DNA of 64,000 bases from a virus, in IMG/VR virus record IMGVR_UViG_3300045976_000117, positions 1 to 64,000 of that record, one strand, 5' to 3'. Below the pieces are notes generated by a model that worked only from the letters and a program-made list of their open reading frames with translations, was not told where the DNA came from and searched no databases. The position numbers were made by a program, and so were the translations under genes. This document shows, piece by piece, positions 6,334 to 50,125 of this stretch; within the stretch, counting starts at the first letter, position 1, and each line of letters starts with the position of its first letter.

Positions 6334-7992
6334 ATGCCACGACGTGTCATTACCGCTAAAGAACACGATCGTGATCTGTCGTTAGGTTGGCTACTGCTTT
6401 CATGGATGGAGTATTTCTGTGTCCATGGGCCAGGGGATGTCCAAGGCGAGCCAGTCCGACATGGTGATGAAGTGTCAGGCTTCATTGTCGACTGCTACGC
6501 GTTGGACAACGACGGGCGACGACTGTATGACAGTGCATTCTTTAGTCGCCCTAAAGGGTGTGACAAATCCGGTCTTGGTGGCAGACTTGGACTCGTTGAG
6601 GCTTTTGCACCTTGCCGCTTTCTTTCCTGGGCTGAGGGTGGCGAAATCTATCGAGATCCATGGGGCTTAGGCTTCGAATACGAGTATCAGCCAGGCGAGC
6701 CTATGGGACGACTGGTCAAGGTACCTTACATCCGCTGCCTGGCCACCGAAGAAGGTCAGACCGGGCTTGTCTATGACACGATCTATTTCAACCTCACAGA
6801 GGGCCCGCTCGCGGAGGTTTCTGGCACCAATGCCGGTCTGACTCGCGTGCTCCTGCCTGGTGGTGGAGAGATCACCCCTAGCACCGCGAGCTCGGCATCG
6901 AAAGATGGTGGTAAGGAGACTTTCGTCGTCTTCGATGAGACGCACCTCTACAACTTGCCGGATCTCCGACGCATGTATACCACCGTTACCCGTAATCTTC
7001 GCAAGAGGAAGAAGATAGCGGGCACGTGGTACCTCGAGACGACCACGATGTTTGCCCCCGGTGAAGAATCCGTAGCCGAAGGTACTTATCGACTCTCTGA
7101 GGCAATCGAGGCAGGCAAGGCAAAAAGGGATCGGCTACTGGTTGATCACCGTTGGGGAGAATGCGAGAATCCGGAAAACGAGAGCGAGCTCCGCGCGGGG
7201 ATTATCGAAGCCTATGGCGACGCTATGGCTTGGAACGATCTCAATGGTTTGGTAGACGAGTTCTACGACCCTCGCCAGCACATCATAGATTCTCGCCGGT
7301 ATTTCCTCAACGCGGAAACCGAGCAATCCGACGCATGGATAGCAGCGAGAGAATGGGACCCATGCGCTAATCCTCTGGCTGTCTTGGCTGATGGCGATAT
7401 GATTGCACTCGGTTTCGATGGCTCTATTAGTGAGGATGCCACGGCGTTGGTGGCCTGCCGTATTGATGATGGGCATCTAGAACTTTTAGCGTGTGAGGAA
7501 AAGCCTCTTGATGCTCGTAATACTTGGCAGGTCGATCAAGAAGCCATAGATGCGGTAGTTAAGCAGGCCTTCGACCGATTTAAGGTGGTAGCTTTCTTCG
7601 CGGATCCGCCACACTGGCAAGATTATGTTGATGCATGGACTGCTGAATTTGCTGACGGCCTTGAGGTCAAGTCAAGTCAGGTACACCCCATTGAGTGGTG
7701 GACTAACCGGCCGTCTGCCATGGTGGCTGCTCTTGAGCGGTTCCGTGAGGCAGTAGCTAGTAAGCGGCTTACCCATGACGGTACGACGATCTTTCGACGG
7801 CATGTGCTCAACGCCCGGCGCCGGGTTACCAGGTCGGGTATCACCATTGCCAAGGAGTATCCGGGCAGTCCGAAGAAGATTGACTGTGCCATGGCCGCGG
7901 TGCTGGCTTACGAGGCTCGTGCTGCCGCGGTTGCTGCCGGGGTCGTTCAGCGAGCGAAGAAACCAAGGTCTAAGCGATTGGTGCGGTTCTAG
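6334..7992 (+). CDS. terL: Terminase large subunit
   Basis: Walker A RPKGCDKS, Walker B FVVFDETH, nuclease LGFDGS..DAT and KIDCAMA. Confidence 0.95.
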   Translation: MPRRVITAKEHDRDLSLGWLLLSWMEYFCVHGPGDVQGEPVRHGDEVSGFIVDCYALDNDGRRLYDSAFFSRPKGCDKSGLGGRLGLVEAFAPCRFLSWAEGGEIYRDPWGLGFEYEYQPGEPMGRLVKVPYIRCLATEEGQTGLVYDTIYFNLTEGPLAEVSGTNAGLTRVLLPGGGEITPSTASSASKDGGKETFVVFDETHLYNLPDLRRMYTTVTRNLRKRKKIAGTWYLETTTMFAPGEESVAEGTYRLSEAIEAGKAKRDRLLVDHRWGECENPENESELRAGIIEAYGDAMAWNDLNGLVDEFYDPRQHIIDSRRYFLNAETEQSDAWIAAREWDPCANPLAVLADGDMIALGFDGSISEDATALVACRIDDGHLELLACEEKPLDARNTWQVDQEAIDAVVKQAFDRFKVVAFFADPPHWQDYVDAWTAEFADGLEVKSSQVHPIEWWTNRPSAMVAALERFREAVASKRLTHDGTTIFRRHVLNARRRVTRSGITIAKEYPGSPKKIDCAMAAVLAYEARAAAVAAGVVQRAKKPRSKRLVRF

Positions 7993-15505: not shown

Positions 15506-15596
15506 GGTGGGGCGGTCCCGATGGAGAGACAGCAGTTATCGCCTCCTATGCTCCGGGCGGTATCTGTGTACGTGGGTTCGATTCCCACCCCCACCT
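15506..15596 (+). ncRNA. tRNA-like RNA with elongated anticodon arm
   Basis: Acceptor GGTGGGG/CCCCACC, D arm GTC..GG..GAC, T arm GTGGG-TTCGATT-CCCAC; anticodon arm 4+7 bp with 12-nt loop. Confidence 0.7.
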
Positions 15597-15614
15597 CTTT
15601 GAGAGGTGTACTCA

Positions 15615-17913: not shown

Positions 17914-20900
17914 ATGGCCGATTATCAGGCTGGCACCGCTTTTCTCACCGTGCTACCGGATATGTCGGGATTCGGCGCCAAGGTCCGCGAAGAGTTAGCC
18001 AAGGATCAGACCGAACTTAAAATTCCGGTCAAGCCTGATGTAGACACCACCAAGGGTGCCAAGGACGGAGAAGAGTACGGCGGTGCCTTCGGCGATGCAA
18101 TGAAGGCGCGCATTGAGGCTGCTCTCAAGTCACTGCCCAAGGCACAGATCGACGCAGACTCGACAGAAGCTGATCGAAAGATTGATGAGCTTCGTACTCG
18201 GCTTGAAGAGCTCCGTGACAAGAGAATAGGAATCGATCTCTCCGCGGAGGAAGCACTAGCTGAGATAGCCGGTATCAAAACTGATCTGGACGAATTAGGG
18301 CGAAAGTCGCCTAACGTTCAGGTCAAGGTCGATGCTCTCAAGGCCGCTGCGGATTTAGCCGGTATCAGGGCTGAGGTCACTGCGCTTGATGGCAAGAACG
18401 TCGATATCAGGGTTAGTGATGGCGGATCTGCCCGTCAAGCCACGAGTGACGTTAATGGTCTTCTCTTGGCAGGTCTGTCGCTAGGTCCGGCGCTGATTCC
18501 CATAGGCTCCGCGGTTGCTGCCGCGTTCGCCAGTATCGGCACTGGCGCGGTGATCGGCGCGGGTGCTATTGCTACGGTTGTTCTTGGCTTCCATGGCGTC
18601 ACTGACGCACTGAAAGACATGGACACTGCTCAGCAGAGCAGTGGCAAGACCGCGGCTCAGACGGCAGCTCAGCAGATATCTTCGGCTAACAGTGTTGCGT
18701 CGGCTCAGGACGGCGTACGAAACGCGGTAAGAGCCGTTGCCGACGCTCAGCACGAAGCTGCTATTTCTGCTCAGCAAAGTGCTCAGCAGGTAGCCAGTGC
18801 ACAGCAGTCATTGCAAGATGCCTATATTCAGTCGGGCATTGCGATGCGCGGTGCCCTTCAATCCGAAGAGCAAGCTCGGCAGTCGTTACAAAGTGCTATC
18901 TATTCTCAGACGGTCGCTGAGCAGACATTAGCTAACGCTCAGCAACAGGAGCAACTAGCTCAGGAGTCATTGACTCTGGCTAGGCAGGCTGCTCAGCGGC
19001 AAATCGAGTCACTGACTCTGGCCGTCGAAGACGGAGCATTGGCGGAACGGCAAGCCGCACTTAACATTCAGCAGACCAAACAGCAGCTTGATCAAACGCT
19101 TGCCAATCCTCAAGCATCACAACTTCAGCGTGATCAAGCTCAACTGAGCTATGACCAGGCTGTTCAGCAACTCAAGGACGTTCAGGCTCGTAACAAGAAT
19201 CTGCAAGAGGATCAGGCTGCTGCGGCCAAGGCCGGAGTAGACGGTTCTCAGCAGGTACAAGCTGCTCAGCGCGGAGTGCAGCAGGCTACTCAAGGCGTCG
19301 CGGCAGCTCAGCACGGCGTGCAACAAGCTGCTCAAGATGTGGCTAACGCTCAGCAGAATTTAGCGAATGCCCAAGCCAATGTAGCAGAAACACAGCGTAC
19401 CAATACGGAACGCATTGCTCAGGCGCAGCAGGCATTAGCTAGTGCGGAGCAAAATCAGGCTGAGACGGCTCGCAAGAACGCGGAGTCTATTCAAAAGGCT
19501 CAGGAAGGTGTTGTTTCTGCTCAGCGGGCCCTGGCCGGAGCACTCGCTCAGCAAGCAGCTCAACAGGACACCGTAAGCGCTTCAGCCAATAAACTGGCTA
19601 AGGATATGGCCGATCTGTCTCCGGCCGGACGCCAGTTTGTCACCTTCCTTCATGATGAGATGGAGCCTAAGGTCAAAGACCTTCAGGCCACCGCACAAGA
19701 AGGATTGTTACCGGGAGTCGAGGACGGGCTTCGTGCCCTGTTCCCGGTATTCCCTGAAATCACTAGTTTTGTCAATGTTTTCGCTACGTCGTTAGGTGAT
19801 CTAGCCCGGCGTGCGGGTCAGGCATTGACTGATCCTTTCTGGCGCAATTTCTTCGGGTTTATTAAAGACGAAGCCGGTCCGTCGATTCAGACCTTCGGCA
19901 CCATTATCGGCAATATCTTTACAGGTATTGCCGGTATGCTCCAAGGTTTTAAGCCCATCTGGGACGCGATGGGCGTAAGCATCGAGAATTTTACGGACAA
20001 ATTCGCTGCATGGGGCAAGGCTGTTGCTTCGGGGGATAGTGAAGGGTTTAACAAATTCCTTCAGTATGTGCAAGAGTCAGCACCGGTCGTAATAGATTTC
20101 CTCAAGCAATTTGGCACACTCATTGGCCATATTGTTGATGCGTTTGCTGGTCAAGGCATCAGTACTCTGCAAGTTCTTACCGAGACACTGCGGATCATCA
20201 ATGGCCTTCCTTTGCCGGTAATTCAGGCATTGATTGACCTGTACATCGCTATTAAGGCTGCCACATTGGTGTCTAATGGACTGAAGTCCATTAGTGACAC
20301 TTTCATCACAATCGGTAAACTACCGGGACAGATCAAGGATTTTGCAGGAACCATTAGAGATCTGCCCGGCGATATTGCCAAGATCGGTGCATCACTCAAG
20401 ACCAACATCAGTGATGCTCTAGATAAAATCAAGAGTGGTGGTGGCCTGAAGGGTGCCCTAGGGCTTACCGGCATCGCGGTGGGTGCCTATGTGGCGGGAT
20501 CCGCACTCGAAGCGGCTGGCTCACCTTTGCCGGAGGGGCAGTCATTCGGCACGGCCAGCACGGGCGCCAAGGTGTCCGACGCGGCAGACACGGCGGGCAA
20601 GCTGCTTACCCTTGATATTCCCGGCCTGTTCGACAAAATTAGTCAGAATATCAAGCAGTTGCCCGATGACCTGCACACCGCGGGTGATCGGATCTCCGGA
20701 TTTGCTCAAGGCATTAAGGATGCCTTCGGAGGTATTGGTGACGGGGTAGGTCAGCTGAGGACTGATCTTGGCGTCGCATGGTCGAACATAGCTGACAATG
20801 CATCTACCCGGTGGAATGGAATCAAGAATGCTGTAAGTAATGCTGCCGGTGATTTCAGGAACACGGTATCCGATCACGTCACTTCACTCGGTAAAACGCT

Positions 20901-22338
20901 CCATGATGACTGGGATTCTTTCTGGCAAAACGCTAGTGACCGCTGGTCGAACATTCGGGACACTGTCAGCGACAGGGCTAGGGAACTTCGTGACAACGCA
21001 AGTAACCATGCCGCGGAGTTGCGAGACTGGTTGGGTGGCCATTGGCAGACTATCTGGCAAAGTGCCACGGACAGATGGAACACGATACGAACTGACGTAA
21101 GCAATATCGCTGGCAGCATCCGTGATGGAGTCAGCAGTGCTATCGGTGCTTTACGAGACAATGTCACTGGAGCATTCCAGACCGCGGTAGACAATATCCA
21201 GAACATCTGGAATCGCCTTGGTGACATAGCGAAAGTGCCCGTCAATTTCGTTATCAACACTGTCTACAATGCGGGCATCGTTCCCATGTGGAACGGTATT
21301 GCCGGGCTCTTCGGACTGGCCAAGCTCAATCCAGCAGTGCCCCTCGCAACTGGCGGTGTGCTGCCGGGCTACTCGCCTGGCCGGGACTCCGTACCAGCTA
21401 TCCTGTCTCCCGGTGAGGGCGTACTCGTACCGGAGGCTGTGCGTGGCCTAGGGCCTGACTTCGTTCACTCAGCGAACGCCTATTTCTCCGGAGGTAGGAG
21501 TACAGGTGGCCGGAGCAGTGCCGGAGGGGTCAGCTACTTTGCCGATGGCGGCATAGTCGGCAGTGTCATAGGCGGAATTGCTGACTTCGTTGCCGATCCT
21601 ATCGGCGCGGTGAAGAAGGCCTTTAACTCGGTACTAGGTGCGACTATTCCTGGCATCGGGCTATTGCATGACGCTCTGGCCGCAATTCCCGCCAAGGTGG
21701 TGGACGGAGCAGTCAGCCTGGTCAAGGGAGCAGTAGCTAAGATCGGTAGCTTCTTCTCCGCAGCCTTCACCGGGTCACCGGATCTCCAAGGCTGGATCAT
21801 GCAAGCGATCCAGTTGACCGGAGTACCCGCAAGTTGGGCAGGCCCATTGTCAGTTCTCATTATGAGAGAGTCGGGTGGCAATCCCAACGCAATTAACAAT
21901 TGGGATAGTAATGCAGCGGCCGGGCATCCGTCTCAAGGCCTTATGCAGACTATCCCTAGCACTTTCTCGGCATACCACCAACCGGGAACGAGCTGGAATA
22001 TACTTGATCCTATTGCCAACATCGCGGCAGGTATTAACTATATTCGAGCTGTGTATGGGGATATTAGCAATGTGCAGCAAGCTAACCCCAACCTGCCACC
22101 GAAGGGATACGACTCCGGAGGTTGGCTACCGCCTGGGATAACAGTGGCCTACAACGGCACTGGGCAGCACGAAAGAATATTGACCGGACCGCAGTATCAG
22201 CAACTCACCGCGGCTGCTTCCCGTAGCGAGTTGCAGCCGGTCACGGTCAATGTTTACCCACGTGCTGAACATTCAGAAGCCGATATAGCGGACATGGTGA
22301 GCCGACGACTCGAGTTTGCCATGCGAGCCAACACCTAA
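17914..22338 (+). CDS. Tape measure protein with C-terminal lytic transglycosylase
   Basis: 1474 aa A/Q-rich helical; RESGGNPNAINNWDSNA..G.PSQGLMQ SLT motif. Confidence 0.95.
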   Translation: MADYQAGTAFLTVLPDMSGFGAKVREELAKDQTELKIPVKPDVDTTKGAKDGEEYGGAFGDAMKARIEAALKSLPKAQIDADSTEADRKIDELRTRLEELRDKRIGIDLSAEEALAEIAGIKTDLDELGRKSPNVQVKVDALKAAADLAGIRAEVTALDGKNVDIRVSDGGSARQATSDVNGLLLAGLSLGPALIPIGSAVAAAFASIGTGAVIGAGAIATVVLGFHGVTDALKDMDTAQQSSGKTAAQTAAQQISSANSVASAQDGVRNAVRAVADAQHEAAISAQQSAQQVASAQQSLQDAYIQSGIAMRGALQSEEQARQSLQSAIYSQTVAEQTLANAQQQEQLAQESLTLARQAAQRQIESLTLAVEDGALAERQAALNIQQTKQQLDQTLANPQASQLQRDQAQLSYDQAVQQLKDVQARNKNLQEDQAAAAKAGVDGSQQVQAAQRGVQQATQGVAAAQHGVQQAAQDVANAQQNLANAQANVAETQRTNTERIAQAQQALASAEQNQAETARKNAESIQKAQEGVVSAQRALAGALAQQAAQQDTVSASANKLAKDMADLSPAGRQFVTFLHDEMEPKVKDLQATAQEGLLPGVEDGLRALFPVFPEITSFVNVFATSLGDLARRAGQALTDPFWRNFFGFIKDEAGPSIQTFGTIIGNIFTGIAGMLQGFKPIWDAMGVSIENFTDKFAAWGKAVASGDSEGFNKFLQYVQESAPVVIDFLKQFGTLIGHIVDAFAGQGISTLQVLTETLRIINGLPLPVIQALIDLYIAIKAATLVSNGLKSISDTFITIGKLPGQIKDFAGTIRDLPGDIAKIGASLKTNISDALDKIKSGGGLKGALGLTGIAVGAYVAGSALEAAGSPLPEGQSFGTASTGAKVSDAADTAGKLLTLDIPGLFDKISQNIKQLPDDLHTAGDRISGFAQGIKDAFGGIGDGVGQLRTDLGVAWSNIADNASTRWNGIKNAVSNAAGDFRNTVSDHVTSLGKTLHDDWDSFWQNASDRWSNIRDTVSDRARELRDNASNHAAELRDWLGGHWQTIWQSATDRWNTIRTDVSNIAGSIRDGVSSAIGALRDNVTGAFQTAVDNIQNIWNRLGDIAKVPVNFVINTVYNAGIVPMWNGIAGLFGLAKLNPAVPLATGGVLPGYSPGRDSVPAILSPGEGVLVPEAVRGLGPDFVHSANAYFSGGRSTGGRSSAGGVSYFADGGIVGSVIGGIADFVADPIGAVKKAFNSVLGATIPGIGLLHDALAAIPAKVVDGAVSLVKGAVAKIGSFFSAAFTGSPDLQGWIMQAIQLTGVPASWAGPLSVLIMRESGGNPNAINNWDSNAAAGHPSQGLMQTIPSTFSAYHQPGTSWNILDPIANIAAGINYIRAVYGDISNVQQANPNLPPKGYDSGGWLPPGITVAYNGTGQHERILTGPQYQQLTAAASRSELQPVTVNVYPRAEHSEADIADMVSRRLEFAMRANT

Positions 22339-32758: not shown

Positions 32759-33286
32759 CTAGGCAACCTGCCGTACCAACTTCCGGCGTTCTGCCGGAGT
32801 CATGCCTCCGGCGATGGCGTAAGCATCATCAGTGGTAATGGCCCACTCGAGGCACTCAGCCGAGACGGGGCATTCCCGACACACGGCCTTAGCTGCCCTC
32901 ATGTTCGGTCGGTTACCAGGCTGCGACCACATGGTGTCAATCGGGAAGAAAATCGACTTGTCTTCCACATCCCGGCAAGCTGCCTTGTGGCGCCAGTCCT
33001 TCTCGTACATCGGAATTACCCTCCTCTCGAGCCAACAGATAGGACAACGTTGTGATGCGCCGTTACGCTTGAGCTCGCGCTCTCGGTAACGGTCTCCTTT
33101 CCATACCCGTGCTAGTTCCCAGGTAATACCCTCCGCGGCTGCCACTTGAAGTAGGCGAGCTCCATGAACTTTACCGTGCTGCCCTAGCCGATCAGCTAGA
33201 TTCAATGCCCATCCTGTGTAGTGCTTTGCGTGTTTGAATGGACGATGAAAATGCAGCAGGTAGATATATCCCTGGACGTTTCGCAC
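32759..33286 (-). CDS. whiB: GIY-YIG-like endonuclease fused in frame to WhiB-family regulator
   Basis: N: YLLHF.RP.KHA.HYTGW..L..RL..H...RCPIC; C: four-Cys WhiB (AAC...C..CPV..EC) with GGMTP.ER. Confidence 0.8.
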   Translation of the reverse strand: MRNVQGYIYLLHFHRPFKHAKHYTGWALNLADRLGQHGKVHGARLLQVAAAEGITWELARVWKGDRYRERELKRNGASQRCPICWLERRVIPMYEKDWRHKAACRDVEDKSIFFPIDTMWSQPGNRPNMRAAKAVCRECPVSAECLEWAITTDDAYAIAGGMTPAERRKLVRQVA

Positions 33287-42891: not shown

Positions 42892-43284
42892 CTAGGCCGC
42901 GGCAGCCTGCTTGGTCCTCAGGTGCTCGAGAATCTGCGGGTTTTGCGTTCGCCACGCGGTCACAGCGAGCTCCGGCAGGCGACCCCGCTGAGCCAGGCTG
43001 ACGCCATTGGCAGCCGCATACTCGCGTACCGCACTTCGCTCTTCCGGGGTCAGACCGGATCCAGTCGGCGCTGCCGTGGTGGACTTGGCCGGACGGCCAC
43101 GCTTGCCAGTACTGGCCTTGCGACCAGCCTCAACATATCGACCAAGGAAATTCCGAAGCTCGTCCTCCTCCGCAGGAGTCAAGTCGATCTCGTAAGTCAC
43201 CCCCGCAAGACCGAACTCCACATTGCGGGCATCGCCTTCGCCACTGAGATCACTGGCGATCTCTACAGTAACCTTCTGTGCCAT
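42892..43284 (-). CDS. lsr2: Lsr2 nucleoid-associated protein
   Basis: MAQKVTV...DL.G, V.FGL.GVTYEIDL, VRE.A..NG....RGR AT-hook. Confidence 0.93.
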   Translation of the reverse strand: MAQKVTVEIASDLSGEGDARNVEFGLAGVTYEIDLTPAEEDELRNFLGRYVEAGRKASTGKRGRPAKSTTAAPTGSGLTPEERSAVREYAAANGVSLAQRGRLPELAVTAWRTQNPQILEHLRTKQAAAA

Positions 43285-43573: not shown

Positions 43574-43635
43574 AAAGCAGGGCCCCTAGGGTGCTCCCCA
43601 GCCACGTGGCCGGTCCCTAGGGGCCCTGCTTTTTG
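43574..43635. terminator. 18-bp perfect inverted repeat, probable bidirectional terminator
   Basis: AAAGCAGGGCCCCTAGGG-N23-CCCTAGGGGCCCTGCTTT plus T tract. Confidence 0.65.
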
Positions 43636-43638
43636 TTG

Positions 43639-44001
43639 TTACTCGTCAGTCGGAGGCTCCACCTCGATCCCTGTTGGGTGGGCCATGCGCCATGCCCGCG
43701 TCTTGATCCGATAGCGCCACTTGCGCCGTTCAGCCGGATCTGTGGGCTCTTCTTCCTGCGTCACATGCAGGCCCACGTTAAGCCACACATCGGAGTTGTC
43801 CGGCTTGAGCAGGCCATACAACTTGTGATAAGCGACTTTCTGAGCACGCTCCAACCAGGCCAACCGCTCTTCGATCGCTCGAGCTGCCTGAACAAAAAGA
43901 TCAATATCGGTCTCTCGGTTGCCGCTGACTTGTTGCCCCAGTACGCGCGACACCACCTCCCCCTCGGTCACCCCATGTGACGTGACTTCCTGATTGCTCA
44001 C
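43639..44001 (-). CDS. Hypothetical protein
   Basis: AGGAGG RBS; divergent from the tra module. Confidence 0.6.
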   Translation of the reverse strand: MSNQEVTSHGVTEGEVVSRVLGQQVSGNRETDIDLFVQAARAIEERLAWLERAQKVAYHKLYGLLKPDNSDVWLNVGLHVTQEEEPTDPAERRKWRYRIKTRAWRMAHPTGIEVEPPTDE

Positions 44002-44200
44002 TGCTGGCGTTCCTCCTGACGGTCTGTCCGATCCTGCCGGACCGGGTTTCAGTTACGTAATTGAAACTGTAGTATGCCGGTCCAAGGTAGTCCTGACTAC
44101 CCCACGGGCGGATGACGGTCCGTCCGTAGGCACCCGGCAGGGTCTTGACTCCGGCCGTGCCGGGTGCCGCCACCAACGGAGTCAGCTAGGCGTAACGAAT

Positions 44201-45070
44201 GTGATCGATCTTGCCGCGGTTCGGAAGACCCAGAGCCAGATTAATGCGGCTATCTGGGGCTGTGCCGGTATCGCCATGTCTGCTTCAGCTATCGCAGGAA
44301 TTACCGGATTTTGGAACCTGCAACACGATGGCTGGGGTCTTGCCTCAGGTCTCACTACTTCGGTAGCCGTGGACACGGCTCTTTGGGTAGCTCTGACCTC
44401 TGATCAACTCATGGAGCGCGCGGGCCTGGCCGCAGACGGGCCTTGGGCTCGCGCCGTACGCTGGGGCACCGCGGTGATGTCGATCTTCCTCAACGTGCTG
44501 GCTGCGGTGCTATCTCCTATCGAAGCCGGTTTCAAATTTCTTCTGATCGTGATTCATGCCTTTGCGCCATTGATCATGGTTGGTTTGGCAGAGCTCCGAA
44601 CGGAGAACGGTCGCAAGCTGGCTGCCAGGGAGCGCGAGGCTCTCGAGCAAGAAGAGGCCCGACGTAGGGCCCTTGATACTCCGATCGTTGCTCCATCCGA
44701 GCGAATCTCACCCCCGGTGCCGATCGTCTCTGTTCCGGACCCCCGGCTGGCCAGTGAGGTTGCCGAACTTCGCGCGGAGCTTGCTCGAGTCAAGACGTTG
44801 ACCCCGGCTCCTCCCACGCCCAAGCCTCCGCAGACGGTAGTGACTCCCTTGCGGCCTGCAACTGAATCCTCAAAAAATCACCGTGGGGCCTCAGTAACCG
44901 ATCGGATCGTTACTTATCTCAACACTCATCACTGTGGGGACCCTTATGGAATCACCGCGGAGATTTTAGCGTCTAAAACTAAACAAAATGTACACACCTG
45001 TAAAAAAGTTCTCACCGATTGGCGTCGGGGGCAAACTGACAAATCACAACGTAGGACGGCGACACCATGA
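44201..45070 (+). CDS. Spd-like (DUF2637-type) membrane protein with coiled coil, Pro-rich linker and C-terminal HTH
   Basis: Four TM with VD and S..LN motifs, H...P...L.E, ATGA-coupled to FtsK gene. Confidence 0.7.
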   Translation: MIDLAAVRKTQSQINAAIWGCAGIAMSASAIAGITGFWNLQHDGWGLASGLTTSVAVDTALWVALTSDQLMERAGLAADGPWARAVRWGTAVMSIFLNVLAAVLSPIEAGFKFLLIVIHAFAPLIMVGLAELRTENGRKLAAREREALEQEEARRRALDTPIVAPSERISPPVPIVSVPDPRLASEVAELRAELARVKTLTPAPPTPKPPQTVVTPLRPATESSKNHRGASVTDRIVTYLNTHHCGDPYGITAEILASKTKQNVHTCKKVLTDWRRGQTDKSQRRTATP

Positions 45071-47220
45071 CTATCACTGATATTTCTCAGCCACCGGAGC
45101 CTGAGAACGAGGAACAACGGCAAAGTGCCATGCGACGGGCCCTCAATCGATGGTTCCGAAGGCCAGAGCCTGAAGACTATGAAGAGGTGACCGGCACTGA
45201 ACTGTCACCATACGTGCCAACACCGCGAGAGCCCGAGCTCGAGCCACTGGCTTGGCTGGAAAAGCACAAGCTCACATTGCCTGACCGGCGACGGGTCAAG
45301 GCTCGAAGCAAGGAAGTAGCCAGGCACCTGCCCGGTATGGCCGTCAAGTTTGCTTTTACCACCCTCCCACGGAGAGCTTGGGACGAAGGCGTAACTCCCG
45401 TCTGGCGTGGTTGCGGCAAATGTGCAATGGCTTACTACAACTGGTTGACCTCCGCCTATCTCGCGGAGGCTCACAAAGACGCCGAAGGCACCCGTAAATC
45501 AGCGATTAACCAGAATAGGCACAAGAGTCATGGCTACAAGCTCTGGGCTTCGGTCTTCGGCGCTTGTACTGCTGCCGGAGGCATGGCCTACCTGTACTTC
45601 TATCATTTTATTCCGTTTCTGGTCGTACTGGGTGTAGTGCTATTTCTTCTCGATGTGCTTGGCCGTGTGGGAGAAGAGAAGAAACAAGAGATTGCTCCGG
45701 TTCACACTCAGCCACTTAGTGAAGGTATGGAGTACGGACAGCTCACCGCGACGATTCAAGCTGGCCTCAATGAGACTATTGGACTGGACAGCGAGGGTAA
45801 GCCACTTGCGCGTGTTTCAGGTCTTGTTACTTATGATTTTGAGCGTGGAGAGTTCCGACAGCCGATCACTACATATCACGACTTCGAAGAAAAACACATT
45901 CGCTATCTAGAACGTCGGGTGGCGGCACGACCCGGCAGCATATTCGTCTTGCAGGAACCGAAAATCTCTACTCAGCGAACCATGGTCATCAAATATCGTG
46001 ACCCGTTCCGAGATGTGCCGTCTGCTCCGTTTATCAAGCCTGGTACGAAATCTATTACCGAGGGTTGTGTTATCGGAGTATCGCAGACTGACCGACAGTT
46101 CCTTGTGCATGTAGCTGGTCTGCATGTTGGCGTGGTGGCCCAGTCGGCAGGTGGCAAGTCCGAAGGGATCATTGCCTCTTTGATCGAGGCTATCCTTGCG
46201 ACACACAATGCTGTGCCGGTTGGCATTGACCTTACCGAAGGACCACTATTTCCAATTTATGAAGGTCTTGTTCAAAAAGTTGCATACACTCCCAAAGATG
46301 CGGAGGAACTTCTCGGTTGGCTGATAGATGAAAAAAGTCGTAGAGCTAAAATTTTGCAGAATATTGCTCGCAGTGATGATCCGAACGTCAAGGGCCGTGA
46401 GTGGAACGCAGATCTCGCGGCGCTGTATAACGCTCCGAGCATCCATGTCATTATCGATGAATTAGCAATGACAACAAAATTCGATGGTAAGGGCGGCAGT
46501 ATTAATCTGCGGGCACCGATCGAAGAGCTCGCCCGTACCGGGTCCAAGCACTGGATCACTCTTATCACTGGCCAGCAGAAGACCGGTAACAATGACGCAG
46601 GTTCTACTGGTATCACCGACAACATGCACGTCTGGCTAGTAGGTCCTTGCTCCCCAGATGACGCTAATGCAATCTTCACCGCGGAGGGGCGTAAGCAGGG
46701 ATATGCACCTAACTTGCTGAAGTCGGCAGAACGGGGCAAGTCTCCTAATGATGCTGGTCGATGCTATGTCAAGGCTCCCGGCTATGGCCCGGACGTGTAT
46801 TGCTCCTATCGGCCGATGCCGGAAGACGAACTCAAGCGTCGCCGCAAGATGCGCCTTGAAATCGGAATACCGATGTTAAAACACTGTGGTGAAGATGATA
46901 ATGATGAAATTATGGAGGCTGAGGTGGTTCCAAGCAGGCCAGTGCTCGAGGCTCTCGCGGCAGCCTTCGAAGATATTAATCCGCCGGACGGCAGATTGCC
47001 GAGTGCTTTGGCTGCTCAATGGATCAGTGAAAGGACCGATATGGAATTTACTCAAGAATCTCTGGCCGCTGCTCTAAAGAAGGAGCTCGGTGATGACCGG
47101 GCACCGCGGACGTACAGCAACCGGTGCAAGATCGTGAAGATCCTTAATCCGGAGGCTGAGAACACCAACCGCAAGTACTACGCACATGCGGACATTTCGA
47201 GCCTCATGGCGGGGGTGTGA
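45067..47220 (+). CDS. traB: TraB-like FtsK/SpoIIIE DNA translocase
   Basis: Two N-terminal TM; Walker A AQSAGGKS; ID motif; E..RR; Walker B VIIDELA; LITGQQK; G.CY; C-terminal wHTH ending T.ESLAAALK. Confidence 0.8.
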   Translation: MTITDISQPPEPENEEQRQSAMRRALNRWFRRPEPEDYEEVTGTELSPYVPTPREPELEPLAWLEKHKLTLPDRRRVKARSKEVARHLPGMAVKFAFTTLPRRAWDEGVTPVWRGCGKCAMAYYNWLTSAYLAEAHKDAEGTRKSAINQNRHKSHGYKLWASVFGACTAAGGMAYLYFYHFIPFLVVLGVVLFLLDVLGRVGEEKKQEIAPVHTQPLSEGMEYGQLTATIQAGLNETIGLDSEGKPLARVSGLVTYDFERGEFRQPITTYHDFEEKHIRYLERRVAARPGSIFVLQEPKISTQRTMVIKYRDPFRDVPSAPFIKPGTKSITEGCVIGVSQTDRQFLVHVAGLHVGVVAQSAGGKSEGIIASLIEAILATHNAVPVGIDLTEGPLFPIYEGLVQKVAYTPKDAEELLGWLIDEKSRRAKILQNIARSDDPNVKGREWNADLAALYNAPSIHVIIDELAMTTKFDGKGGSINLRAPIEELARTGSKHWITLITGQQKTGNNDAGSTGITDNMHVWLVGPCSPDDANAIFTAEGRKQGYAPNLLKSAERGKSPNDAGRCYVKAPGYGPDVYCSYRPMPEDELKRRRKMRLEIGIPMLKHCGEDDNDEIMEAEVVPSRPVLEALAAAFEDINPPDGRLPSALAAQWISERTDMEFTQESLAAALKKELGDDRAPRTYSNRCKIVKILNPEAENTNRKYYAHADISSLMAGV

Positions 47221-47410
47221 GGGGGCTACGAGGGGGTCAACTGTTGCGGGTCTGTTGCGCAACATCAGGTGCCCTGTTGACCCTCTCTGTCAACCCCCTG
47301 GCTACATGGTCATACCTCCCGATTGTCCGGGTATCCGAGCGCGTACTCCAGTGCGCATCCGCAGGTACTGACCGGGTACTCACGCGAGTACTCAGGGGAG
47401 GTGAGTACCC

Positions 47411-47620
47411 GTGGGCATTGCACTTCTGATACTCGTGGGAGTACTCGCGGTTTGGGCGCGTCATTGCTGGCGTTGGCCCTATGTGACCTGCAAACATTGC
47501 GAGGGCAAGAAGCGTGAGTACTCGTCGGACGGCGCGTACTTCCGAGACTCTGAGTGCGCGTTCTGCCTCACCAACGGGTATCGGTACCGGTGGGAGCTTC
47601 GATGGCTGACCCTGCTGTGA
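47411..47620 (+). CDS. Small membrane-anchored zinc-finger protein (AICE-type)
   Basis: GGAGGTG RBS; TM then WP...CxxCxG...F...CxxC...G.R.R. Confidence 0.7.
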   Translation: MGIALLILVGVLAVWARHCWRWPYVTCKHCEGKKREYSSDGAYFRDSECAFCLTNGYRYRWELRWLTLL

Positions 47621-47640
47621 GTACCCGCAACATCGCTGAC

Positions 47641-47698
47641 CTGTCCAGCTTGACAGGGGTCATCTGTCCGGGTACTTTGTGCCTAGGAACTTAGGCAG
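47641..47698 (+). promoter_or_regulatory. Rightward promoter with operator A over -35 and operator B downstream of -10
   Basis: TTGACA(47650)-N17-TACTTT; CTGTCCAGCTTGACAG; GTGCCTAGGAACTTAGGCAG. Confidence 0.78.
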
Positions 47699-47713
47699 TT
47701 GAGAGGTAGAAAG

Positions 47714-48014
47714 ATGAGTACTCGGAAAAGTGTCAAATCGACCCATGCGGGGACTTGTTCGCAGCGTCTGCAAGATCGTACGCAATGGGTCCGAAACACC
47801 GGACAGAAGGCCGGACAGTTTGGGGCTGTAGGGCTGTTTACTTTGACTCTGGCGGGCTGTGGTGGCCATGCATTCCTCGACAACAGCCCGACCTGCGGCT
47901 GGTGGATGGTACGGCGTCACCCATGTCAACGTGGACGGCAAAATGGTTCCGTGCGTGACTTGGAAAAATGGCCACGCGGGCGGAATCAGTTGTGATTTTG
48001 CGGGGTCGAAGTGA
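47714..48014 (+). pseudogene. Frameshifted lipoprotein gene
   Basis: Lipobox LAGC in one frame; VPCVTWKNGHAGGISCDF in the +1 frame; junction at CATGCAT near 47867. Confidence 0.6.
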
Positions 48015-49114: not shown

Positions 49115-50125
49115 ATGATGGGCCACGGACACACCTCGTTTAACCTGGTTAACGGCCTGGCATTGGGTGATGCACTTGCCCTGCCTCCGTTAGTCACTCT
49201 CACCATGGGCGTGTGTCTTGCTGGCGCCGGAACACTGCCAGACATTGACTGCCATGGATCGACAGCCAGCACAGCGTTCGGACCTTTCTCCGATGCTGTT
49301 CACCATGCGTCGAAGCATTTACATCACATGGTTGCTGCGTCCCTGTACTCCGAACATGATTTCGAGAATGGGCACAGTGAGCACCGCGGGTTGACGCACT
49401 GGTGGCCGTTCTGGATTGTCTGCGGGGGCGGGGTAGAGATTGGCTGCCTCACCGTTGGGCGATGGTTCGTTATGGGAGTCATTGCCATACTCTTCGCGCT
49501 GGCCGCGCGGGGACTTTCTATTCCGGACGTGCCAACTGAGCGACAAGATCGGTTTCTTGACTCACTCAAACATGAATTTGCGATGCGCTGGGCTTACCGA
49601 CTTCTACTCCTGTGCCCGTTCACGTGGTGCATGCGACTTTTGAACAAACGGGTACGTCGCACTCGCCGTTACACCTTGTTCAGTATCTTCAGTCATGACT
49701 TCGGTTTCCGATTCGGAATCGGTAAAGTAGTCACCCTGGGAGTCTCGGTACTGATTTCATATGCTCTTGTGACTCAGGGAGTGGCGTCCACCATTGGCCC
49801 CTGGCTTGGCCTTATTGTCTTCGCGGGTATGCTCCTTCACTGGCTAGGTGACTCACCTACGCACATGGGCGTGCCCGGTTTTCTGCTTCACCACAAGTGG
49901 AAGCTGCCGTTTTGGGCCAGCTTCTACGCGGGCGGTCCTTTCGAGGTTGCGGTGATCTGGTTCTGCCTTGGATGGCTCAACCTTCTTCTGATTCCTGGTC
50001 TTGCGCCACGGTGGCTCGAGATGGATGTCATCACCTGGGGCGGTTTGTTCTTAGGACTAATAATTTTGTTGGCCATCATTGTGGAAGGCACACAACGAAC
50101 GAAACAGAGGAGGTATGCAACATGA
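49115..50125 (+). CDS. Metal-dependent membrane hydrolase (YdjM/DUF457-like)
   Basis: GH.H, LPDID, HRGLTH, H.LGD..T..GVP. Confidence 0.85.
   Translation: MMGHGHTSFNLVNGLALGDALALPPLVTLTMGVCLAGAGTLPDIDCHGSTASTAFGPFSDAVHHASKHLHHMVAASLYSEHDFENGHSEHRGLTHWWPFWIVCGGGVEIGCLTVGRWFVMGVIAILFALAARGLSIPDVPTERQDRFLDSLKHEFAMRWAYRLLLLCPFTWCMRLLNKRVRRTRRYTLFSIFSHDFGFRFGIGKVVTLGVSVLISYALVTQGVASTIGPWLGLIVFAGMLLHWLGDSPTHMGVPGFLLHHKWKLPFWASFYAGGPFEVAVIWFCLGWLNLLLIPGLAPRWLEMDVITWGGLFLGLIILLAIIVEGTQRTKQRRYAT

Follow-up and report, generated by a model that had tools for sequence, protein, structure and literature searches.

What looks like a DNA-transfer module of actinomycete plasmids lies in the genome of a tailed bacteriophage, at positions 44201-47723 of the virus record IMGVR_UViG_3300045976_000117, and raises the question of what such a phage could do with it. 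The window analysed here is the first 64 kb of this 74,298-bp linear IMG/VR viral contig (G000), whose completeness is estimated at 78% by CheckV. The module is composed of the following features, given with their coordinates in the window:

44201..45070, plus strand: probable SpdB2/DUF2637-like membrane protein, 289 aa, GTG start
45067..47220, plus strand: TraB-like (pFP1-type) FtsK-fold translocase of double-stranded DNA (dsDNA), 717 aa
47221..47340, no strand: non-coding array leader with short repeats of the TGTTG/CAACA type
47341..47723, no strand: clt-like array, about 8 copies of G(A/G)GTAC(T/C)C
47411..47620, plus strand: small membrane-anchored zinc-ribbon-like protein, 69 aa, CKHC...CAFC, inside the array

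We propose that these features could together be a phage-borne version of the single-ATPase apparatus by which actinomycete plasmids and the integrative and conjugative elements of actinomycetes (AICEs) transfer or spread dsDNA, docking at the array and conveying the DNA of the phage across septa or cell contacts, a reading that we believe about as much as we doubt it. A preliminary description of this DNA had listed a four-transmembrane (four-TM) protein with a coiled coil, a proline linker and a helix-turn-helix (HTH), its translational coupling to a 717-aa membrane-anchored FtsK/SpoIIIE-type ATPase with a C-terminal winged helix, and after the ATPase gene an 8-bp repeat array and a small TM-CxxC-CxxC gene. 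Each of these parts was found again, as detailed below.

The translocase carries a Walker A motif at G363-K364-S365 and a Walker B motif at D464-E465, and neither K364 nor E465 varies among 72 diverse relatives. Its AlphaFold2 (AF2) model, with a predicted local distance difference test (pLDDT) score of 89.9, consists of a long helical N-terminal region, a motor at about 220-607 and a C-terminal domain at 625-716. A helical hairpin at 142-200 (142-179 / 181-200) falls together with a hydropathy peak at 172-204 and is predicted to be the N-terminal membrane anchor, its membrane part being put at about 158-200. The C-terminal domain, a confident region of the model, has its helices (H) and strands (b) in the order H-b-H-H-b-b, as in winged helices; a profile of this domain gave no match among the PDB sequences. 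Searched with Foldseek, the model had its best matches in the FtsK motor (E 1e-15 over about 430 columns) and in the conjugation coupling protein TcpA (E 1.5e-14), with EssC/EccC (about 1e-8) and HerA well behind. VIA, a second structure aligner that is independent of Foldseek, gave tied Z scores for EccC (26.2, RecA core only, 310-606), TcpA (25.9, 224-601) and FtsK (24.5, 220-607). Since these scores are tied and the aligned spans differ, the core fold is common to all three, and the alpha-plus-beta span fits DNA translocases. The Pfam FtsK_SpoIIIE model (PF01580) scored 17.4 bits on the translocase, below its cut-off of 24, and matched 17 of the 72 family members. PHROGs assigned the protein to an 'FtsK/SpoIIIE-like' family, and none of the module proteins had a match in NCBIfam.

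The family was then delimited by a profile search of 1.84 billion representatives, which returned 570 relatives of the translocase, mostly 600-750 aa long. A tblastn search of 72,556 plasmids gave matches on 17 of them, all from Streptomyces (best E 3e-12), and among phages it matched nothing but a protein annotated 'FtsK-like DNA translocase' in 34 records of Streptomyces phages, most of them genomes of about 130 kb of the BE-cluster type. Two hidden Markov models (HMMs) were used for scoring, a narrow one (A1) built from the 12 closest homologues and a wide family HMM and alignment (A3) with 72 members. A1 gave 111 bits for the plasmid protein of CP108176, 104 for that of pRVR1, 87 each for those of pFP1 and NBC_00285, and 110 for gp114 of Streptomyces phage Tomas; the outgroups scored 16-18 bits (three actinobacterial chromosomal FtsK proteins), 5 bits (pIJ101 Tra) and less than 3 bits (EccC). 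With A3, 36 members reached 238-788 bits over nearly their full length, and the outgroups at most 55. In a tree of the motor domains a single clade with support 0.95 took in all 36 and left FtsK, EccC and pIJ101 Tra outside; the deep branches are approximate, since the family HMM was used to align the outgroups. Within this clade the phage lineage of the window forms a subclade of its own outside the plasmids, and Tomas gp114 lies in the plasmid subclade, not with the window's lineage (P0001).

By its sequence the translocase is grouped with the transfer ATPases of Streptomyces plasmids (pFP1-type) and of AICE-type elements and with the translocases of BE-cluster phages. The pFP1 protein itself has been counted among the Streptomyces plasmid Tra proteins (Ghinet et al. 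2011, PMC3218068). Whether the ATPase would cluster with chromosomal FtsK or with type VII EccC had been put forward as a check, and both were rejected. Besides its low A1 score and separate clade, chromosomal FtsK differs in PF01580 score (17 bits for the translocase vs 225-245 for actinobacterial FtsK), and the translocase has neither an FtsK_gamma match nor, by Pfam, a four-TM FtsK N-domain. EccC/EssC, also excluded by A1, has three tandem ATPase domains in at least 1300 aa vs one in 717 aa. As a separate observation, DUF3631 (PF12307), the RepAM replication-initiator marker of AICEs, was matched in 6 of the 72 translocase relatives of A3.

The gene upstream begins with GTG, in agreement with 25 aligned homologues beginning M..DLAAVR, and its stop codon (45070) overlaps the translocase ATG at 45067 in an ATGA (45067-45070), the two overlapping genes being in one operon and co-translated. 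In the AF2 model of its product (pLDDT 79.5) the helices at 4-41, 44-65, 81-104 and 109-159 are read as four membrane helices, the last of which would run on as a long helix to residue 159. They are followed by an amphipathic helix (181-199), a Pro-rich linker that is disordered (200-231) and a three-helix domain (232-287), confidently modelled and HTH-like. The protein matches PHROG 25954 (E 1.4e-10), and 31 full-length homologues were found, none of them with a Pfam domain. Several of these homologues sit on contigs equal in size to those bearing homologues of the translocase.

A relationship of this protein to SpdB and DUF2637 proteins, also put forward in advance, is suggested by profile comparison but not by the Pfam HMM. 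The latter (PF10935) matched neither the protein nor the six-frame translation of the genome, and it likewise leaves the named SpdB of pIJ101 unmatched. With Foldseek, the model had no relative among solved structures (best E 0.38). Comparison by hhalign of the N-domain family with a 26-sequence DUF2637 profile gave a score of 32.9 (E 5.9e-5, probability 65%, 100 columns), in an alignment that spans all four helices and has the VD, SxxxN and P...E positions in register. The controls scored 12.5 (reversed) and at most 13.4 (ten shuffled), and the annotated DUF2637 protein of pFP1 scored 32.1. Only the 26-sequence profile gave such a signal; there was none when the family was aligned by hhalign with single SpdB or DUF2637 sequences. 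The N-domain was also aligned with gp45 of Streptomyces phage TG1 (probability 93%, E 2.9e-7). Traits described for SpdB2 (PMC4447253) are present, namely four TM helices, oligomerisation helices and a gene adjoining and coupled to a tra-type gene. We regard the protein as probably a remote member of the SpdB2/DUF2637 type.

The third part of the module is the array, which could be followed in related phages. Related loci were found on two viral contigs (L002, L003), on two metagenome contigs and in one genome, and the related-phage comparisons cover three of these loci, L002, L003 and the metagenome contig L014, beside the window. In the window the palindrome GAGTACTC stands at 47386, 47439, 47516 and 47716, with variants at 47341, 47374, 47403 and 47619. 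It has 5 copies in the whole window, where 0.63 are expected, and 4 of them lie within 47386-47723. With the degenerate pattern of the array, 7 of the 27 sites of the genome fall inside one 400-bp span, which none of 20,000 random placements reached. A 10-bp inverted repeat, TGTTGCGGGT / ACCCGCAACA, has one arm in the leader (47242-47251) and the other at 47623-47632. At the leader position GTTGA/TCAAC repeats are found in L002, L003 and L014, and at the position of the array the word is GGGGTCA(T) in L002 and L003 and GGGGTA(C/T)T in L014, either of them nearly absent elsewhere in its locus. The copies in these three relatives are mostly in forward orientation before the small gene and in its 5' part, and reversed just past its stop. 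The word thus differs among the four related phages and the place of the array is constant; the word is non-palindromic and directional in the three relatives and has become palindromic in the window.

The small gene inside the array is kept in all four phages (L002 3332-3538, L003 12279-12485, L014 8309-8518), with 57-64% identity in L002 and L003. Its translation and hydropathy indicate a single N-terminal TM helix at residues 1-20. Its Pfam match is sub-threshold only, and no similarity was found to pIJ101 SpdA or to the 'RRQRL zinc-binding' proteins of plasmids. The array copy at 47516 overlaps conserved R-E-Y codons of this gene. It was further observed that the G-V-L codons track the local word, being GGA GTA CTC in the window, GGG GTA CTC in L014 and GGG GTC TTG in L002 and L003, a codon choice that recalls SpdA2/sps of pIJ101.

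The plasmid relatives of the translocase, whose arrays served as the positive control for the array search, have about 200 bp of non-coding DNA after the translocase stop, packed with a 7-8-mer of their own in both orientations and flanked by inverted repeats. The words are CTCTAC / GTAGAG in pFP1, CGGAACC / GGTTCCG in pRVR1, and GACACATC and GATGCGTC in CP108176. In pWTY27 the clt locus has been mapped experimentally and comprises 16 bp of traA and the 159 bp that follow, with 7-bp repeats that are bound by TraA (PMC3583192). The array of the phage occupies the same spot as these arrays and as the mapped clt of pWTY27, and by analogy it may act as a clt. It may be read by the winged helix of the translocase, by the membrane protein through its C-terminal domain or by the small zinc-ribbon protein.

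The whole module, with phage genes on both flanks, is syntenic in L002, L003 and L014 at about 45-65% amino acid identity; in the comparison with L003 the module reaches 44-64% and the flanking genes on both sides 33-58%. L003 lies in a complete genome of 95,770 bp with direct terminal repeats (G002), whose large terminase is 83% identical to that of the window. Neither G000 nor the complete G002 has a tyrosine or serine recombinase (PF00589, PF00239) or a ParB (PF02195). The GC content of the module is the same as that of the genome, about 54% in the window, and the module contains 5 copies of CCGCGG vs 4.8 expected at the density of the genome. On this evidence we judge that the module is an old, inherited part of a lineage of roughly 95-kb tailed phages, and two earlier claims, that it is no recent passenger and that it shares the CCGCGG enrichment of the genome, are upheld. 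The lineage itself appears virulent, as it has its own replication genes and no detectable lysogeny or plasmid-maintenance genes, which weakens the case for conjugation from a stable donor.

How the module might work is read, by analogy, from its anatomy and family placement, and this holds for the hexamer, the binding to the array and the direction of pumping as well as for any transfer. During infection the translocase would assemble into a ring of six, which its helical hairpin would hold in the membrane, together with the SpdB-like protein. Through a C-terminal DNA-binding domain it would dock on the array, and driven by ATP it would pump phage dsDNA into the neighbouring compartment or cell, by way of a septum or of a contact between cells. 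The infection would then spread with neither virions nor a surface receptor. The spread of replicating phage DNA across septa would fit at least as well as conjugation, and with no evident way for this phage to persist in a donor, its spread inside a mycelium or from one touching cell to the next is likelier than mating of the plasmid kind, which starts from a stable donor. Of the candidate 'conjugative phage' of the preliminary description, the plasmid-type module is indeed present, but conjugation is only one possible outcome of it, and neither an integrase nor a ParB was found that would serve residence in a donor. In its fullest form the proposal would be that apparently virulent, roughly 95-kb tailed phages push their replicating genomes by an inherited TraB-SpdB-clt machine through septa or contacts, spreading with no need of virions or receptors, and that the 8-mer docking word (GAGTACTC here, GGGGTACT and GGGGTCAT in sister lineages) co-evolves with the pump; we offer this tentatively, as possible and, taken whole, rather doubtful.

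Several points weigh against a transfer pump. The transfer function is carried over from the pFP1-type proteins, and the assignment to the TraB type stands as far as the grouping with plasmid and AICE Tra proteins goes (A1 87-111 bits, clade support 0.95) but not for pIJ101 Tra, the classical Tra protein compared, which at 5 bits is no closer than FtsK. The DUF2637 membership of the membrane protein is given by a moderate profile-profile score (65%), with the Pfam HMM unmatched. The motif of the window is palindromic, unlike the directional TraB recognition sequences (TRS) of pSVH1, and part of the array is under coding constraint (R-E-Y and G-V-L codons). BE-cluster phages keep the translocase with neither an SpdB-like neighbour nor an array, so that the ATPase may serve phages otherwise. 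A lytic infection gives little time for transfer, and the mycelial host is an assumption, with a GC content of 54% and the closest cultured portal only 38.6% identical.

One such other use, which we consider unlikely, is that the translocase acts inside the infected cell. There, at septa that are about to close, it would shift or remove DNA of the phage or of the host, partition genomes to compartments or spores, or help to resolve concatemers, and the array would be a loading or orientation site, as are the FtsK orienting polar sequences (KOPS) and the SpoIIIE recognition sequences (SRS) for FtsK and SpoIIIE. The fold, that of the FtsK alpha-beta motor, would suit this role, as would a virulent-looking phage with its own polymerase, primase-helicase and exonuclease and the retention of the ATPase alone in BE-cluster phages, and a phage FtsK-like protein has been guessed to act 'during replication' (PMC11536984). 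However, the nearest non-phage relatives are not segregation FtsK proteins but transfer ATPases of plasmids and AICEs that are paired with DUF2637 proteins, and the 8-mers are clustered at one locus instead of being spread over the genome and skewed like KOPS.

Another explanation, which we also hold to be improbable and which does not exclude the first, is that the array functions as an operator or as a stability site and that its reader is either the small zinc-ribbon protein or the C-terminal domain of the membrane protein, the translocase acting site-free or elsewhere. It has a precedent in pIJ101, where SpdA2 is a zinc-finger DNA binder and the palindromic sps inside its own coding region affects stability, not transfer (PMC4170104). 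The palindromic GAGTACTC is typical of dimeric binders, copies of it lie inside the small gene and beside a conserved promoter-like site, and a small zinc-binding gene belongs to the module of the plasmid relatives as well. Yet the small protein is membrane-anchored, has only 69 aa and resembles neither pIJ101 SpdA nor the plasmid zinc-binding proteins, the motif is non-palindromic and directional in the three relatives, and the place of the array matches that of the plasmid arrays and of the mapped pWTY27 clt.

That the module is a passenger, which came in by recent insertion as an AICE or plasmid fragment or was joined to a phage in the assembly as part of a conjugative element, is scarcely credible and was ruled out, for although its nearest non-phage relatives do sit on plasmids and AICE-like elements, the module and both flanks are syntenic in three related loci, the complete G002 holds it together with the related terminase, integrase, resolvase and ParB are absent from G000 and G002, GC content and CCGCGG excess in the module equal those of the genome, and the phage lineage is a separate subclade that is not nested among the plasmids.

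Around the module and in the rest of the window the following features were recorded:

6334-7992: large terminase, in the left arm of the window
32759-33286, minus strand: WhiB-like protein, 175 aa, with an N-terminal extension
42892-43284, minus strand: Lsr2-like protein whose dimerisation domain matches at E 1.7e-18, some 1 kb upstream of the module
43639..44001, minus strand: divergent gene of 120 aa, 33% identity at the same place in L003, no Pfam match
47650..47678, plus strand: promoter-like site TTGACA-17 nt-TACTTT after the small gene, read from the sequence
49115..50125, plus strand: YdjM-like membrane metal-hydrolase, 336 aa, Pfam YdjM E 1e-7, 32.1 bits (cut-off 29)

On the left, the intergenic region 44002-44200 between the divergent gene and the module probably holds the module promoter, placed there by position. 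Further left, at 43574-43632, a perfect 18-bp inverted repeat (AAAGCAGGGCCCCTAGGG / CCCTAGGGGCCCTGCTTT) with a T run stands between convergent genes and closes the leftward unit. This hairpin is probably a bidirectional terminator and the left boundary of the module region. On the right, the site at 47650-47678 is a putative promoter that the consensus promoter scanner did not call; GCTTGACAGG is found at the same offset after the small gene in L002, L003 and L014. The YdjM-like gene is 54-58% identical and in the same order in L002 and L003; it is a conserved downstream neighbour, and its membership of the module is uncertain. Phage operators, which had been said to border the module, were not recovered, as the operator-type palindrome pattern was found 7 times vs 5.4 expected, with no match near 47679 or at the array.

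The left arm of the contig encodes a head decoration protein, large terminase, portal, protease, major capsid protein, minor tail proteins, endolysin and holin, as expected from the full head/tail/lysis set claimed at the outset, and the 1474-aa open reading frame at 17914-22338 is probably the tape measure gene. The replication block, with exonuclease, primase-helicase, family-A DNA polymerase and HNH endonucleases, lies at the far right end. WhiB and Lsr2 proteins are typical of actinophages. The closest cultured portal, at 38.6% identity, is that of Streptomyces phage Samy, and the host is taken to be some actinobacterium, with mycelial growth assumed. A search of a genome collection of 185,579 species gave no close relatives, and hence neither prophage copies nor a clue to the host, and megablast gave no match to the module among cultured phages. 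Two further features of the genome were observed. CCGCGG, the SacII site, occurs in 102 copies vs about 26 expected from base composition and is spread over the whole of G000, and the enrichment of a palindromic restriction site in this way is unusual for a phage. Between the head and tail genes, at 15506-15597, ARAGORN reported a 92-nt 'tRNA-Asp' with anticodon ATC, whose abnormal length and anticodon suggest that it may be a tRNA-like element rather than a decoder.

If the module works in this phage as it does in plasmids, some actinophages would have a mode of transmission that needs no capsid, receptor or lysis. It would give non-plasmid phages a second route that is independent of the capsid, would alter the models of phage spread, host range and resistance in mycelial bacteria, and would make the border between phages and conjugative elements less sharp. 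It would also provide a function for the 'FtsK-like translocase' that is widely annotated, yet unexplained, in phages of Streptomyces. With 8-mers that are specific to each lineage beside a conserved pump, these phages offer a natural series for the study of DNA choice by FtsK-like motors. The value of the case is limited by the uncultured state of the phage and by the precedents of pZL12 and pFP4 and earlier speculation.

Among the closest known systems are the plasmids pFP1 (NC_006912.1), pRVR1 (NZ_AP018366.1) and NBC_00285 (NZ_CP108056.1), in which a DUF2637 gene lies upstream of the translocase, as in the phage. In pRVR1 and NBC_00285 a small 'RRQRL zinc-binding' gene stands between the two, whereas the small gene of the phage follows the translocase and is non-homologous. 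The plasmid translocases (pFP1, pRVR1, NBC_00285, CP108176.1) belong to the same clade as that of the phage but are only 25-27% identical to it and longer (687-1017 aa), and that of pFP1 bears an N-terminal FtsK-gamma domain which the phage protein lacks. The plasmid carriers have replication and partition functions, and the phage genome is a virion-forming one. The arrays of pFP1 (L004), pRVR1 (L073), CP108176 (L005) and L074, about 10-230 nt past the stop, were observed to have in common a flanking inverted repeat, CGCAGGTCAGCG ... (C/G)TGACCTGCG, which is possibly conserved as a structural element in clt loci of the pFP1 type.

An AICE-like arrangement was met in a Pseudonocardiaceae genome (L008), where a 541-aa DUF2637 protein (28 bits, above the cut-off) overlaps the start of a member of the translocase family (P0144) and a NUDIX gene follows. 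A NUDIX gene is a usual companion of AICEs. About 2.3 kb downstream of this NUDIX set, at 14490-16514 of L008, a 674-aa protein with a type VII secretion system (T7SS) signal and C-terminal ADP-ribosyltransferase domains looks like a polymorphic toxin.

The TraA-clt of pWTY27 and the TraB-clt of pSVH1 share with the phage a single membrane-anchored FtsK-like ATPase, with a C-terminal domain that is a winged helix there and winged-helix-like in the phage, and with repeats abutting the 3' end of its gene; TraA of pWTY27 has 688 aa and two TM helices (PMC3583192). Systems of this type have Spd membrane partners, among them the four-TM SpdB2 (PMC4447253), and their likeness to the phage is one of layout. 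The TRS of pSVH1 are directional, whereas the motif of the window is a palindrome. FtsK/SpoIIIE and EccC/EssC have the RecA-type motor fold in common with the translocase but differ in family HMM scores, domains and clade.

Phages that behave as conjugative plasmids are not without precedent. The plasmid-phages pZL12/phiZL12 and pFP4 are reportedly the subject of Zhong et al. 2010 (J Bacteriol 192:3747) and Chen et al. 2012. According to a passage in PMC4170104 they conjugate yet also form particles, and a passage in PMC3583192 has the transfer of pZL12 require a tra gene. They live as plasmids with ParAB (PMC4487206), whereas the window's lineage has no ParB or integrase (G000, G002), and pZL12-like records were absent from the tblastn matches to plasmids and phages. 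The cultured BE-cluster Streptomyces phages are large tailed phages whose translocase (Tomas gp114, NC_070781.1) belongs to the same family (A1 110 bits, A3 323 bits); it has 604 aa and 23% identity and, unlike that of the window, neither an adjoining SpdB-like gene nor a downstream array. Conversely, gp45 of the phiC31-like TG1 has an N-terminal four-TM domain homologous to that of the window, and in such phages no translocase lies beside it. SpdB2 homologues have been noted on actinophages and a role in spreading phage DNA already suggested (Thoma et al., PMC4447253); we infer that TG1 gp45 is among the homologues meant. FtsK-like translocases are likewise 'found in many other actinobacteriophages' (bioRxiv 10.1101/2024.02.16.580700). 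The translocases and SpdB2 homologues of actinophages, the idea of spreading and the conjugating plasmid-phages were thus already known, and what the present phage adds to them is the full trio, with a co-varying word at the putative docking site, in an apparently virulent, non-plasmid lineage.

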